Virus record (IMG/VR): IMGVR_UViG_2671180524_000015
Reading direction: 5' to 3' (one strand)
DNA from: a virus
Lineage: Duplodnaviria > Heunggongvirae > Uroviricota > Caudoviricetes
DNA: 9,284 nucleotides
Shown: in pieces, positions 1-8,180 of the stretch
Layout: each line of letters begins with the position of its first letter
Position numbering within the stretch: position 1 is the stretch's first letter
Translations under genes and position numbers: made by a program
Notes under the pieces: model-generated
What the model was told of the DNA's origin: nothing
Databases searched by the model: none
What the model saw: only the letters and a program-made list of their open reading frames with translations

Positions 1-182
1 ACAGCGCAGGCTGATTACGCAGTACCTGTTCGATCTTCGCTTTCTCGGATGCCTCACATTCACCATCTGCACAGGCCACCAGGTATGCGGCGTTAATCAC
101 CACCTGTGCCAGATCGCGTTTTTCAAACTTTTTAATTTCCGTTGCCGCTCTGCGGGCTTTTTTTACCAAAAATACCAAACAT
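1..182 (-). pseudogene. Second, variant copy of the TerB-like gene 5' end plus leader; reading frame breaks after about 6 codons
   Basis: Positions 1-237 align with 448-684 with scattered substitutions. The ATG at 182-180 opens MFGIFGKKSPQSGNGN then stops, because this copy has one extra base near codons 6-9; the +1 frame resumes ..KKARRAATEIKKFEKRDLAQVVINAAYLVACADGE... Could be a sequencing error or a genuine disrupted paralog. Confidence 0.3.
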
Positions 183-287
183 CGTGACGTTCCTTTGGGT
201 GGGTGAGCCAACGCCCGGGAGCGATCTGCCCACAGAGNNNNNNNNNNNNNNNNNNNNNNNNNNNNNNNNNNNNNNNNNNNNNNNNNN

Positions 288-629
288 CGCAATGGCCACC
301 GCCACATCCAGCACATCTTCCGCTTCACGCGTATCGTGTTTCACATCCTCAATCTCGCGTAACGCGGCACGACGACCAATTTTAAAATTGGTATCCAGCT
401 GACCGATAATAGTTGCGCTAATCGCATTAATTTCCGAGGTAAACGCAGACAACGCAGGCTGATTACGTAAGACCTGTTCGATCTTCGCTTTCTCGGATGC
501 CTCGCATTCACCATCTGCATAGGCCACCAGGTATGCAGCGTTAATCACCGCCTGTGCCAGATCGCGTTTCTCAAACTTTTTAATTTCCGCTGCCGCTCTG
601 CGGGTTTTCTTTTTGAAGATTCCAAACAT
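288..629 (-). CDS. TerB-domain-like protein, 3' end lost in N-gap
   Basis: ATG at 629-627 with AAGGAA Shine-Dalgarno about 8 nt upstream. 114 codons read to the gap edge: MFGIFKKKTRRAAAEIKKFEKRDLAQAVINAAYLVAYADGECEASEKAKIEQVLRNQPALSAF...DVLDVAVAIA. The spacing of A.ADG..S..EK.KI and the second ..VA.A stretch matches my memory of the tellurite-resistance TerB domain fold pattern. Confidence 0.55.
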
Positions 630-761
630 CGTGACGTTCCTTTGGGTGGGTGAGCCAACGCCCGGGAGCGATCTGCCCACAGAGAAAGTCACACTGACCA
701 CTCCGTAAGCTCACCCCCGAAAGGCTCTGTGGTTGATATGCGCCGGGCGTGGCGCAGATAC

Positions 762-786
762 AAAAAAGGCCCGCCGAAGCGAGCCT
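762..786 (-). terminator. Rho-independent terminator downstream of tRNA-Arg(UCU)
   Basis: Minus strand reads GGCTCGC-TTCG-GCGGGCC followed by TTTTTT (7-bp stem with one G-U pair, UUCG tetraloop). Equivalent hairpins follow the other two copies near 1062-1086 and 1322-1346. Confidence 0.5.
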
Positions 787-798
787 GGAAAATAAGTG

Positions 799-875
799 TG
801 GCGCGTTGTAGTGGAGTCGAACCACTGACCGATTGCTTAGAAGGCAATTGCTCTGTCCGGCTGAGCTAACAACGC
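799..875 (-). tRNA. argO: tRNA-Arg (anticodon UCU), phage-type
   Basis: Reverse complement folds as a 77-nt cloverleaf: acceptor GCGTTGT/ACAACGC, D stem GCTC/GAGC with GG in the loop, anticodon stem ATTGC/GCAAT with loop CTTCTAA, T arm AGTGG-TTCGACT-CCACT, discriminator G, encoded CCA. Symbol is by analogy with the ileZ-argN-argO cluster of Stx phages. Confidence 0.75.
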
Positions 876-1095
876 AGAATACCGATAANNNNNNNNNNNN
901 NNNNNNNNNNNNNNNNNNNNNNNNNNNNNNNNNNNNNNTTGGGTGGGTGAGCCAACGCCCGGGAGCGATCTGCCCACAGAGAAAGTCACACTGACCACTC
1001 CATAAGCTCCCCCCGAAAGGCTCTGTGGTTGGTATGCGCCGGGCGTGGTGCGGATACAAAAAAGGTCCGCAAAAGCGAGCGAGGGAAAATAAGTG

Positions 1096-1172
1096 TGGTG
1101 CGTTGTACTGGGTTCGAACCAGTGACCGATTGCTTAGAAGGCAATTGCTCTGTCCGGCTGAGCTAAAAACGC
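1096..1172 (-). tRNA. argO: tRNA-Arg (UCU), variant copy
   Basis: Same fold and anticodon loop as 799-875, but with T at position 6 opposite C67, T stem ACTGG/CCAGT, T loop TTCGAAC and discriminator A. Confidence 0.65.
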
Positions 1173-1185
1173 AGAATACCGATAA

Positions 1186-1219
1186 TGGACCGCCATCGGA
1201 GACTCGAACCCCGCGAAAC
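1186..1219 (-). tRNA. argN: tRNA-Arg (UCG) 3' portion, truncated by N-gap
   Basis: Identical to the 3' part of the complete copy at 1446-1522 (TGGACCGCCATCGGAGACTCGAACCCCGCGAAAC on the plus strand) and runs into the gap at 1220. Confidence 0.45.
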
Positions 1220-1355
1220 NNNNNNNNNNNNNNNNNNNNNNNNNNNNNNNNNNNNNNNNNNNNNNNNNNCCCCCCGAAAGGCTCTGTGGTTGGTATGTGC
1301 CGGGCGTGGCGCAGATACAAAAAAGGCCCGCAAAAGCGAGCCGGGAAAATAAGTG

Positions 1356-1432
1356 TGGCGCGTTGTACTGGAGTCGAACCAGTGACCGATTGCTTAGAAG
1401 GCAATTGCTCTGTCCTGCTGAGCTAAAAACGC
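1356..1432 (-). tRNA. argO: tRNA-Arg (UCU), variant copy
   Basis: 77-nt cloverleaf with anticodon loop CTTCTAA, T stem ACTGG/CCAGT, T loop TTCGACT, discriminator G and CCA; T at position 6 as in the 1096-1172 copy. Confidence 0.7.
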
Positions 1433-1445
1433 AGAATACCGATAA

Positions 1446-1522
1446 TGGACCGCCATCGGAGACTCGAACCCCGCGAAACCAGCTTCGAAGGCTGGCGTTC
1501 TATCCCGATGAGCTAATGGCGG
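1446..1522 (-). tRNA. argN: tRNA-Arg (anticodon UCG by my fold)
   Basis: Reverse complement CCGCCATTAGCTCATCGGGATAGAACGCCAGCCTTCGAAGCTGGTTTCGCGGGGTTCGAGTCTCCGATGGCGGTCCA. Acceptor CCGCCAT/ATGGCGG, anticodon stem CCAGC/GCTGG with loop CTTCGAA, T arm CGGGG-TTCGAGT-CTCCG, CCA encoded. The D stem has one non-canonical pair in my fold. Confidence 0.7.
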
Positions 1523-4402: not shown

Positions 4403-4545
4403 TTACTCCTCAGGTTCGTAAGCTGTGAAGACANNNNNNNNNNNNNNNNNNNNNNNNNNNNNNNNNNNNNNNNNNNNNNNNNNGTCACTATGACGGTTAA
4501 ACAGATGACGATCAGGGCGATTAACATCGCCTTTTGCTGCTTCAT
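4403..4545 (-). CDS. hokD: Hok-family type I toxin (HokD/RelF-like), interrupted by N-gap 4434-4483
   Basis: AAGGAG Shine-Dalgarno then ATG at 4545-4543. N-terminus MKQQKAMLIALIVICLTVIV; after the gap the frame ends ..VFTAYEPEE with TAA at 4405-4403. Both ends match my memory of the 51-aa HokD. Confidence 0.8.
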
Positions 4546-4666
4546 AACCTGCTTCTCCTTGCCTTTCGGCGCGTAAGAGGCTAACCTACGTTTGTGAAGC
4601 ATAGATTGGGCCTCAGATTAATGTTAAGCGTCTTGCAGGACGCGTAATGTTAACTGGGGCTTTTCT

Positions 4667-4702
4667 CTGTCTGCCTTACGGTGGCATGCCCGAGGCAGAC
4701 AG
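4667..4702. repeat. Perfect 10-bp inverted repeat with 16-bp spacer containing an 8-bp palindrome
   Basis: CTGTCTGCCT (4667-4676), spacer TACGGTGGCATGCCCG with GGCATGCC inside, AGGCAGACAG (4693-4702). Confidence 0.5.
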
Positions 4703-4762
4703 CCTCAAGCACCCGCAGCAATTCTACTTAACTCTCGCTTTACAGCAAACCGTTTTGCCCGA

Positions 4763-5002: not shown

Positions 5003-5566
5003 TCATTGGTTCTCCCCCTGTGTCGCTTCTACTGCGATCTGACTGGCGTATTCGTTAATGGTAACGATAAGTTCTTGCTCGGCCTCATCCAGACAACTAC
5101 CGATACCTCGCCTGTCCACTTCAGAAGCATCGAAATCTGCACGAAGCCTGGCGACCTTCAGGATTGCGGACAACACCTCATCAGGGATTGCCGGAGAGTT
5201 GGTTGACGTTTCCGAGATTATCCGAAAATTATTGGTTGACGAACCCTTATTTTCCCGAAAGTTTCCAGCCTGAAGCATGGCGGCGCGGTGACACCAGATA
5301 ATCCAGCCAAGCGCCATATCCCATGCCATGTATTCTCTATCGCCATTTTTTGCTCTGCGGCGATCTACAGATTCCCCGAAACGCTTCTCCATAAATAATT
5401 CATAGGCTGCCCGTTCATCCGATACTGATGCCAGTGATGCCAGTGCAATTTTTAATGCGGTAAGCATGTTGTTTTGATCTTCATCGAGTCCGAACGGTAT
5501 TTCATCCCGTGATGACTCAATTCCGGTAATCGTGTTCTGTAGCCATTCTTTGGTTAATTCAGTCAT
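5003..5566 (-). CDS. Hypothetical protein, 187 aa
   Basis: Long ORF from ATG 5566-5564 (MTELTKEWLQNTITGIESSRDE...) to stop 5005-5003. Weak Shine-Dalgarno; preceded by a 126-nt AT-rich intergenic region. No family recognised. Confidence 0.6.
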   Translation of the reverse strand: MTELTKEWLQNTITGIESSRDEIPFGLDEDQNNMLTALKIALASLASVSDERAAYELFMEKRFGESVDRRRAKNGDREYMAWDMALGWIIWCHRAAMLQAGNFRENKGSSTNNFRIISETSTNSPAIPDEVLSAILKVARLRADFDASEVDRRGIGSCLDEAEQELIVTINEYASQIAVEATQGENQ

Positions 5567-5692
5567 TTTTCACTACCGCCCTTTCGGGCGGTCTCCTGAT
5601 GTTCTGAGGGTGCAGGAATCCCTCCGGTTAAGGATTTAATAAAAATCATTTCTGATTTAAATTTTCAGTGTTTAGTTGTTGGTTTATAGCCT

Positions 5693-6004
5693 TTATGCTT
5701 CGGCCTTATTTCTCAGCCATACACAAACAGGACCATCTTCGGTGTCATGTATCGAACCGATAAACCATCCCTCACCTTCTGGTCGCTCAGGTTTCCATGC
5801 TGAAATATCAGGGCCATCTGCGTCCAGATTAAAATCATCTTCATCCATACTACGGATAGCCCACTGAAGATTATTTTTCTCCATCCAGGCGTTAAACTCT
5901 TCCGTTGAAATATATTCCCGACCATCACAGAATTTTTCATATTCAGGATGCGTCCAGCAGCCATATTCATTACGTTCCACTGGCATTTCTTTAATTACGC
6001 TCAT
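5693..6004 (-). CDS. Hypothetical acidic Trp-rich protein, 103 aa
   Basis: ATG at 6004-6002 overlaps the upstream stop as ATGA; AAGGGGGG Shine-Dalgarno. MSVIKEMPVERNEYGCWTHPEYEKF... Confidence 0.6.
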   Translation of the reverse strand: MSVIKEMPVERNEYGCWTHPEYEKFCDGREYISTEEFNAWMEKNNLQWAIRSMDEDDFNLDADGPDISAWKPERPEGEGWFIGSIHDTEDGPVCVWLRNKAEA

Positions 6005-6189
6005 TTACCCCCCTTATTTAATTTTCTACGACACTTTTTACAATCATCTGGACTTTCGAATGTATCCGGCTCACGCTCATTGCCAAAATACATCCACCCA
6101 CCGCAAATACTTGTTATTTCACCTTCAGCAAAATAATGATGTTTTTTCGCCATAAGTGGCCTTGCCCAGCCCGGATTCGTTTTACTCAC
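6001..6189 (-). CDS. Hypothetical small Cys/His-containing protein, 62 aa
   Basis: GTG start at 6189-6187 overlaps the upstream stop as GTGA, with AGGAGG 6 nt upstream. ..HHYFAEGEITSICGGWMYFGNEREPDTFESPDDCKKCRRKLNKGGK has a possible Cys/His metal-binding spacing. Confidence 0.5.
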   Translation of the reverse strand: MSKTNPGWARPLMAKKHHYFAEGEITSICGGWMYFGNEREPDTFESPDDCKKCRRKLNKGGK

Positions 6190-6542
6190 TTGTTGCCTCC
6201 TTTGCGAAGCTCTGCGACTAACTCGTCACATATGTGCGTCAAAGAGCAAAGTTTGATTGCTGGATGTTCGCGCACCATCTCCACACCCTGCGCCCGCAAT
6301 TCTGCCAGAAAAGCGTAGGGGTCAGTTTTTTCACTGTGGTACATGGCATCATAGATAATCATTGCAGCGACACCTGCCTGTCCTGCATCTGTGACGGATA
6401 TATGCTCAAGGGCTACGGCCATTGCGTGTTTCAACCTCTCATTTTCCACCTCAAGCACCACACGATTAGCCTCCAGCTCTTCTATGCGTTTTTTTGCTGC
6501 TCCCAGCTCAACACGCAGCTCCTGATAGTTAATCTCGCTCAT
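6186..6542 (-). CDS. Hypothetical protein with predicted N-terminal coiled coil, 118 aa
   Basis: ATG at 6542-6540 overlaps the upstream stop as ATGA; GGAGGAAGGAGA Shine-Dalgarno. MSEINYQELRVELGAAKKRIEELEANRVVLEVENERLKHA... Confidence 0.6.
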   Translation of the reverse strand: MSEINYQELRVELGAAKKRIEELEANRVVLEVENERLKHAMAVALEHISVTDAGQAGVAAMIIYDAMYHSEKTDPYAFLAELRAQGVEMVREHPAIKLCSLTHICDELVAELRKGGNK

Positions 6543-6763
6543 TCTCCTTCCTCCCGCACTGCTGTTTTATATGCCCGAAGCACATGCGATGTTTTTCCTG
6601 ACACAGTGCTTCTCAGAAAGAAAATTCCACTGGTGTTTATTACCAGATACGGGTCAGCAAGACGCAGCATATCCAGTATGTGATTATGTTTTCTTGTTTC
6701 CAGCACCGTACTTGAAATAAGCATATGTGACACGGGGCCGAAATCATGATATCTGATTTTCAT
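6539..6763 (-). CDS. Hypothetical protein, 74 aa
   Basis: ATG at 6763-6761, 21 nt downstream of the previous gene; MKIRYHDFGPVSHMLISSTVLETRKH... Confidence 0.5.
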   Translation of the reverse strand: MKIRYHDFGPVSHMLISSTVLETRKHNHILDMLRLADPYLVINTSGIFFLRSTVSGKTSHVLRAYKTAVREEGE

Positions 6764-6784: not shown

Positions 6785-7483
6785 TTACCCGTTATCTCCT
6801 GTCGTTATTTTCTGTATGACATCACGATGCTTATTAATTTCCCGCAGCGCGGCGCATAAGCGCTCCCACTTCTGAACCTGACCTTTTGCCCGGCGCAGCT
6901 CGCGGTTAGCCACATGCAGCGATGGTAAAATCAGACCATCCGGATGCTTTCTGATGAACGACGACTGTGACTGCACTGTGACCGCCACACTTTCAGTTTT
7001 AATTTCTTCCTGTGTTTCCGCTTCCCGGACTGGTAACGCAACACCTGCCGGCTGAGGAAAGGCTTTACCATCGGTTTCCGTTACCGATGCAGCTTTCGGC
7101 TCTGCCGGTAAATTATCGCCCGGTATGCAGTAACGATATTTACCGTCCTGATTTACGCGAATCAGACGACCTTTGCTGACAGCCATCGCCAGTGATGAAT
7201 TCGCCCGGCGGGAGGTAATCCCGAACATTAACGCCAGTTCGTCAGCCGACTGAGGACCATGCTGTTCAATCGCGTTAATCAGCATCTCTGCAGTGGTTTT
7301 TGGGGCCGCTTCAGTTGCCTCACTCGTCAGCCACCACATCGACCCCTTGTTATCAGCTTCGCCACGACGCTTCAGCTTCCAGAGTTCGGTAACAGCATCG
7401 TCACGGCTGATTTCAAGACGGGCTGCAATCTCGTGCGACGAGGCTTTTTTCAGTGCTTTCAGTGCGTCAAAAACGGTTTCCAT
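6785..7483 (-). CDS. Hypothetical protein with two winged-helix-like segments, 232 aa
   Basis: Start chosen at ATG 7483-7481 ([42 protein letters not shown]...) because GGGAGGAAAA lies 7 nt upstream. The ORF-track start at 7549 would overlap the P-like gene and has no ribosome-binding site. Confidence 0.55.
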
Positions 7484-7517: not shown

Positions 7518-8180
7518 TCAGACAAAACCGGCCGCCTTCCGGCGCTCATATTCCTGTTTCAGCAATTCAATTGGCGTTGGCCCTGGCGGGCGTTTGGGTG
7601 CTGCCAGTTGTCGCCGGACTGGCGGAACACTGAGGCCATTACCAACATGCTTTGCCCATTTCGTCAGCTGCCTTTCCACAAGCCGTTTTAACTCCCCTTC
7701 GGTCATCTGGCGCTCAATCCCCTTTGAACGCATCTCGAGGCAAATGTGGTACAGCACCGGCTGTGGCCACGGGTATTTATCACTCCCGTCGTACCGCCAG
7801 GATTCATTCCTCCAGCGACGGTACTCCTCCATCACGGCATCCACCGTCAGGCCAAATGGATTTGCCCCGCTCTCCGAAATCAACGCCACAAACTCAGCCA
7901 GATCCGGAGGCCACGTTTCACCCGCCCGGCAGCGGTCCATGCACTGACGGCAGACCTGCCGGATTTGCTGTTCAGTCATCGCGCCAATCTGAGCAATCCA
8001 GAGCTTCGACGGCGCAGCCCCGTTCTTCTGGGTCCAGCGGTTCGAATACACCTCCCCCATAAGTTCCCACAGCTTCCAGGCCGTTTCCGTTGCTGATAAA
8101 TCCGTTTTCACGTTCCCACTGTTCACGTGCTGCCCGAATTTCCTGAACTGCCCGTGATGCGGTGCCACCTGGTGCTGCAT
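7518..8180 (-). CDS. Replication protein P-like (putative helicase loader), 220 aa
   Basis: ATG at 8180-8178 with AAGGGGGT Shine-Dalgarno. The central and C-terminal parts (..[52 protein letters not shown]..) resemble my recollection of lambda P (..PSPGQFVAWCREEA..YPWKSNAHYWLV..). Size is close to lambda P (233 aa). Confidence 0.5.

Follow-up and report, generated by a model that had tools for sequence, protein, structure and literature searches.

Four overlapping small genes in the early operon of an Escherichia coli O157:H7 prophage are probably individually exchangeable accessory genes

The DNA analysed here (the window; 9,284 nt in full) belongs to a lambdoid prophage of E. coli O157:H7. 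The segment matches 332 complete E. coli genomes at 99.9% identity, mostly O157:H7, and gives partial matches to a further ~616 genomes. Its minus strand carries four short genes, here called g1 to g4, whose ends overlap (Table 1) and which the matching E. coli genomes annotate as hypothetical proteins between DUF1627 and hokD. The gene order of the PV15-279 prophage is LexA-like repressor, cro, ydaT, DnaT-like O, P, DUF1627, the four hypotheticals, another hypothetical, hokD, DUF968, rusA, Q, tRNAs and the lysis genes. The slot that g1-g4 fill is the variable part of the rightward delayed-early operon, from the replication genes (DnaT-like O, P and DUF1627) to hok, DUF968, rusA and Q. Hundreds of genomes already contain the locus in annotated form, and an architecture of this kind is nothing unusual for lambdoid phages.

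Table 1. Genes and sequence elements in and around the four-gene run. Energies are for predicted pairing of the Shine-Dalgarno (SD) sequence with the anti-SD.
Feature	Position	Strand	Remarks
DUF1627 protein, upstream neighbour	6785..7483	-	21-nt gap to g1; PGAP start 7483
g1, 74-aa basic protein	6539..6763	-	pI 9.6; phrog_1001, E=9e-24
SD of g2, GGGAGGAAGGAGA, inside g1	6543..6555	-	-10.3 kcal/mol
g2, 118-aa short Ead/Ea22-like protein, likely coiled coil	6186..6542	-	pI 5.35; start overlaps g1 stop (ATGA)
SD of g3, AAGGAGG, inside g2	6196..6202	-	-11.6 kcal/mol
g3, 62-aa basic protein	6001..6189	-	pI 9.15; phrog_2358; GTG start overlaps g2 stop (GTGA)
SD of g4, AAGGGGGG, inside g3	6008..6015	-	-11.8 kcal/mol
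g4, 103-aa acidic Trp-rich protein	5693..6004	-	pI 4.31, 6 Trp; phrog_1372; start overlaps g3 stop (ATGA)
Non-coding spacer, 126 nt	5567..5692	-	Ends the overlapping run; ~90% conserved downstream of g4 relatives, whatever the next gene
GGAG plus hairpin ACCGCCC-GAAA-GGGCGGT	5596-5575	-	7-bp stem, GAAA loop; 8 nt before the g5 ATG
g5, 187-aa hypothetical protein, downstream neighbour	5003..5566	-	phrog_14306/660

Several features of the surroundings were recorded along the way. The longest ORF of the upstream DUF1627 gene begins at 7549 with a poor SD, whereas the ATG at 7483, the start chosen by PGAP, has a strong one (-10.3 kcal/mol); the gene therefore probably begins at 7483. Downstream, a full-length sok antisense RNA (Rfam RF01794, 114.9 bits; 4540-4714, minus strand) adjoins a hokD-type toxin gene, and a type I toxin-antitoxin module therefore lies ~1 kb downstream of g1-g4. 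The window has five tRNA genes (799-1605; three Arg-tct, one Arg-tcg and one Met/Ile-cat) where the near-identical PV15-279 prophage has three. The Arg-tct gene sits within a direct repeat of ~260-300 nt that is present in three copies (window 1-1450), and near the TerB-like gene there are two copies of a 164-nt piece (1-164 and 449-612). Six masked runs of 50-52 N (238-287, 889-938, 1220-1269, 2592-2641, 2842-2893 and 4434-4483) break the TerB-like gene, the tRNA repeats, rusA and the hok region; 5693-6763 contains no such run. No intrinsic terminator or Rfam family was found within or 3' of the four-gene run, and a literature search by RefSeq protein accession returned no match for these proteins.

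An earlier note on this DNA had read the run as four minus-strand ORFs, each overlapping the next by 4 nt and each of the last three served by a strong SD inside the preceding gene. All four ORFs are present, and the junctions are ATGA (6542-6539), GTGA (6189-6186) and ATGA (6004-6001) as claimed. The predicted pairing of the three internal SDs is strong, with SD-to-start spacings of 6 nt for g2, 5 nt for g3 and 3 nt for g4, and g1, which starts after the gap to DUF1627, has a weak SD (-3.9 kcal/mol). The stop/start overlap of a translationally coupled pair is thus found at all three junctions. Experiments in E. coli have shown that an ATGA or GTGA overlap with an SD in the upstream gene couples translation (PMC6728339, PMC10666635, PMC12548453), and a 4-nt overlap, the commonest spacing of co-directional prokaryotic genes, supports coupling by termination and reinitiation (PMC10666635, PMC6728339). 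Judged from the letters, g1-g4 have the anatomy needed for such coupling. A ribosome that ends one small gene would restart on the next, so that all the short ORFs of a long polycistronic transcript would be translated, and the stop-start overlaps would leave no untranslated gap in the early transcript. The strong SDs of g2-g4 would also allow independent initiation.

The last two genes had been judged by eye to be more AT-rich than the rest, and the composition agrees: GC is 0.413 for g3 and 0.429 for g4, whereas the replication genes and DUF1627 lie at 0.52-0.58 and the full window at 0.511. The same is true of g1 (0.427), and g2 stands at 0.499; GC3 goes down to 0.32-0.39.

The overlap between g2 and g3 depends on where g3 starts. 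The RefSeq/PGAP protein (WP_001414276, 51 aa by its annotated coordinates) starts at an internal ATG at 6153, which abolishes the overlap. We consider GTG 6189 the better start because (i) the peptide AGWARP upstream of ATG 6153 is conserved in g3 homologues, (ii) an ATG or GTG is found at the position equivalent to 6189 in 42 of 48 related loci, and (iii) the SD of ATG 6153 is poor (-4.8 kcal/mol at 11 nt). The RefSeq g3 is probably 12 codons too short.

Profile searches bore out the view that the four proteins are uncharacterised. None has a match in NCBIfam, PADLOC or the PDB sequences, and none a Pfam match above threshold. Each falls in its own PHROG family of unknown function with its own taxonomic spread. 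We looked for an assignment of all four to well-characterised nin families, and this was not what the searches returned. Nor was a toxin-antitoxin or defence domain found for any of g1-g4 in PADLOC, Pfam or NCBIfam, and the gene pairs are not conserved. The coiled-coil protein, the small Cys/His protein and the acidic Trp-rich protein that had been noticed in the run correspond to g2 (Ea22-like), g3 and g4, respectively.

The g1 protein contains no Cys, and its family, phrog_1001, is small, with ~21 clusters, nearly all of 73-85 aa, among 1.84 billion representative proteins. Relatives in Stx phages and in Fels-1 lie in the leftward early operon, where they adjoin xis/int. We rejected the identification of g1 with lambda Orf73, a TraR/DksA Cys4 zinc finger, which belongs to phrog_54; a transplanted lambda orf73-ea22 pair as the source of g1 and g2 was rejected with it, Orf73 being unrelated to g1. 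In phage vB_EcoP_phi367 (locus L003, 2947-3734) a DUF1627-like gene lies upstream of a g1 relative with one 126-nt ORF between them, in a leftward operon near xis/int. Since the DUF1627-g1 neighbourhood thus recurs in another operon, there may be a weak link between the two genes.

For g2, the best PHROG matches are phrog_492 (7e-24) and phrog_368 (4e-19). Pfam Ead_Ea22 (PF13935) scores 18.1 bits (E=0.004), which is below the 27-bit gathering cut-off, and phmmer against all PDB chains did not recover Ea22 at E<=1. The stretch that encodes the C-terminal 43 aa is ~90% identical at the DNA level to a phage ev099 gene that RefSeq names ead/Ea22-like. We conclude that g2 is probably an Ea22-like coiled-coil oligomer.

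Residues H17, H18, C29, C50 and C53 of g3 do not vary across 17 sequences, and these His and Cys residues suggest that g3 is probably a small zinc-binding protein. A Pfam scan of all members of the g3 alignment gave no match and no zinc-finger hit; matches to BPTI/Kunitz domains had E>0.01 and were taken as chance. The g4 protein has a confident structure model, an alpha/beta domain with no significant structural neighbour, and its family occurs in phages of Proteobacteria, including enterobacterial, Burkholderia, Pseudomonas and Vibrio phages. A Pfam scan of all members of the g4 alignment gave no match, and the longer g4-domain proteins of PEp14 and Burkholderia vB_RY5 contain no Pfam domain that hints at function. 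Speculatively, g4 would most plausibly bind or inhibit a protein of the host or of a competitor.

The lengths of these families bear on one explanation of the overlaps, namely that frameshifts have split larger genes into these ORFs and that the overlaps are what pseudogenisation or assembly errors left behind. The PHROG profiles are indeed longer than the proteins (146 positions for g3 and 194 for g4), and the window contains masked N runs. The proteins are nevertheless full length for their families: nearly all g1 relatives have 73-85 aa, those of g3 52-70 aa and those of g4 ~102-110 aa. Homologues of g4 that reach 155-172 aa are fusions to unrelated sequence, never to a neighbouring gene. 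The identical sequence is found in hundreds of finished genomes, and the four-gene run is free of N runs. We therefore regard fragmentation as hardly credible.

From the strict coupling the earlier note had gone on to deduce a cassette co-expressed in fixed stoichiometry. This corresponds to the possibility that g1-g4 together form one complex, or carry out the steps of a single pathway, with the overlaps fixing their proportions. [quoted passage not shown] If this explanation were correct, homologues of the four should stay adjacent in diverged genomes. For each gene, we searched IMG/VR loci that contain a relative for the other genes within 4 kb. All four occur together at 15 of 80 loci of g4 relatives among the matches listed (83-99% identical), and all 15 are 97-100% identical copies; the sample was at most 80 loci per query, mostly enterobacterial prophages, and small, fast-evolving partners could escape tblastn. 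Among the matches listed, the remaining 65 g4 loci have no g3 in 63 cases, and g1 is found in only two, both rearranged. Diverged g3 loci are without g1, g2 and g4 in 30 of 33 cases. In scans of close relatives the g1-g2 pair was found only in copies identical to the one in O157:H7, and the few diverged g2 matches are without g1. The adjacency in diverged genomes that marks a subunit operon is thus not seen for g1-g4.

What stands beside these genes elsewhere is diverse. When neighbouring ORFs were clustered, relatives of g4 had 5 families upstream and 11 downstream, and relatives of g3 had 12 upstream and 14 downstream. The geometry of the junctions persists regardless: an overlap of 4 or 8 nt with the upstream stop is seen for the g4 start in 76 of the 80 loci listed and for the g3 start in 42 of 48, whatever the upstream gene. 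Similar junctions are common in related operons. Between cII and Q of lambda, 10 of 12 junctions overlap and 7 of the 12 do so by exactly 4 nt, among them P/ren, ninB/ninC and ninI/Q, whose products are functionally unrelated. The early-left genes of Fels-1 overlap in a similar pattern, and the prophage annotation contains further 4-nt overlaps at cro/ydaT, DUF1482/dicB, rusA/Q and terB/DUF3927. A run of three 4-nt overlaps is therefore not unusual in lambdoid early operons. Because the junctions overlap alike with other neighbours and in lambda, the overlap is a property of the operon and not of these particular partners. The single-complex explanation also has against it that g1 relatives lie in a different operon beside xis/int (Stx phages and Fels-1) and that no fusion protein joins any two of g1-g4. 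We consider it very unlikely, and the deduction of stoichiometric co-expression from strict coupling is not supported.

There is a narrower version, which limits the functional partnership to g3 and g4, a basic zinc protein with an acidic partner, acting like a toxin and antitoxin or like an inhibitor and its regulator. The two are adjacent in one diverged locus (L112; 73% and 65% identity) and occur together without g1 in two recombinant contexts (L024 and L043). Their isoelectric points are far apart (9.15 vs 4.31), at 30 other loci a different small Cys-rich protein (CX9C...CPFC) precedes g4, and one g4 homologue (P0062) bears a Cys/His-rich N-terminal extension. A g3-g4 fusion serving as a Rosetta-stone link was considered and rejected, as the 155-172-aa g4 homologues are fused to unrelated sequence. 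On the other side, another gene lies upstream of g4 at 61 of 78 g4 loci among the matches listed, and two of the upstream families are without the Cys motif. The other upstream neighbours include an acidic protein that has no Cys and a small membrane protein. In addition, g4 is absent from 30 of 33 diverged g3 loci, virulent phages of the Wifcevirus type have g3 without g4, and neither PADLOC nor Pfam gave a toxin or antitoxin match. A dedicated g3-g4 pair is, in our view, unlikely.

Since each of the genes occurs with other neighbours in other phages, the architecture is that of an ordinary phage mosaic, and g1-g4 are probably no dedicated four-part machine. The reading we prefer, with a probability of roughly 0.7, is that g1-g4 are real, individually exchangeable accessory genes of a lambdoid early operon, that the overlaps are the standard format of its junctions and that the products most likely act separately. 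The diversity of neighbours shows that recombination between phages exchanges genes at or close to their borders, so that one junction geometry recurs with other partners; reshuffling at gene borders among lambdoid prophages is consistent with earlier reports (PMC2327257, PMC3945230). Our best guess for the products is that g1, g3 and g4 would be separate binders directed at host or competitor proteins and that g2 would act like Ea22. One consequence is a caution: chains of 4-nt overlaps in lambdoid early operons do not indicate protein complexes and therefore should not serve as the sole grounds for proposing a functional cassette.

The overlapping run ends at the spacer 3' of g4. The predicted fold of the spacer RNA is better than that of all 200 shuffled sequences (z=-3.24). 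At its 3' end lies a leader with the consensus GGAG-(A/G)CCGCCC-GAAA-GGGCGGT, which we found in 80 unique lambdoid segments, where it precedes at least 7 gene families and follows at least 10. An ATG stands 5-10 nt past the leader stem in 64 of 67 cases. Across the alignment 95% of cells are paired, and most of the variation consists of C-to-U or A/G changes, with G-U pairs preserved. There is one compensatory change, C-G to A-U, and the covariation is not significant, with 176 of 500 shuffles as good. Neither the leader nor the spacer has an Rfam match, both are absent from lambda, and in a scan of species-representative genomes the spacer was found only in E. coli and Shigella. Three IMG/VR loci (L178, L202 and L243) each contain two leader hairpins 1064 nt apart with one gene between them. 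Such twin hairpins are as expected of a repeated boundary between exchangeable genes, if the element so acts.

There are at least three possibilities for the role of this leader, which is so far a candidate defined by its sequence: (i) a split ribosome-binding site, (ii) a hairpin that sequesters an SD and (iii) a recombination linker, and these may be combined. The order SD, hairpin, AUG that defines a split ribosome-binding site is present at 5596-5567. The 3' arm of the hairpin (GGGCGGU) may itself be a weak SD hidden by pairing, and this would have the opposite effect to that of a split site. As a homology linker, the leader may allow genes to be swapped among lambdoid prophages of E. coli and Shigella. 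A bolder proposal has two parts: g4 would be a new fold that inhibits a host or anti-phage protein, possibly aided by g3, and the leader would be both a portable split ribosome-binding site and a homology linker for gene swapping. Taken as a whole we give this an outside chance. Since the g4 family is widespread and its confident model resembles no known structure, screens for anti-defence or host-takeover functions could reasonably include it, and the leader is a candidate translation-control element reused before many prophage genes of pathogenic E. coli.

Several known systems resemble parts of this locus. A hairpin between the SD and the AUG is known from T4 genes 38 and 25, where it shortens the effective spacing and so forms a split ribosome-binding site (PMC3014915). 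The leader is similar in that its GGAG is followed directly by a 7-bp hairpin with a GNRA loop and the AUG stands 5-10 nt further on, but it has no sequence relationship to T4.

Lambda Ea22, encoded in the exo-xis region, forms tetramers and favours lysogeny; besides its coiled coil it has a short N-terminal domain and a C-terminal domain that varies (PMC10834534, PMC7093339). The g2 protein has a heptad-rich central part and shares the N-terminal motif MSEINxQxLR (MSEINYQELR in g2 and MSEINSQALRE in lambda Ea22; pairwise E=0.007). Both match phrog_368, phrog_11761 and phrog_250, although different parts of phrog_368 are matched. The two differ in length (118 aa for g2 vs 182 aa) and in the C-terminal module, where pairwise BLASTP found no similarity, and the g2 gene belongs to the rightward operon instead of the exo-xis interval. 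Given this weak homology, g2 may bias the decision between lysis and lysogeny in the manner of the Ea22 proteins of lambda and Stx phages.

A parallel to the run as a whole is the nin/O-P-ren operon of lambda, in which ren and the first nin genes fill the equivalent slot. Both have small genes 3' of the replication genes, ATGA-type overlaps and mosaic exchange of single genes. The genes themselves differ, as g1-g4 are not homologous to ren or ninA-ninI by any Pfam, NCBIfam or PHROG link. Compared with the pairs of complex subunits stressed in the literature on translational coupling (PMC6728339, PMC10666635, PMC12548453), whose junctions those of g1-g4 resemble, the partners here are not conserved.
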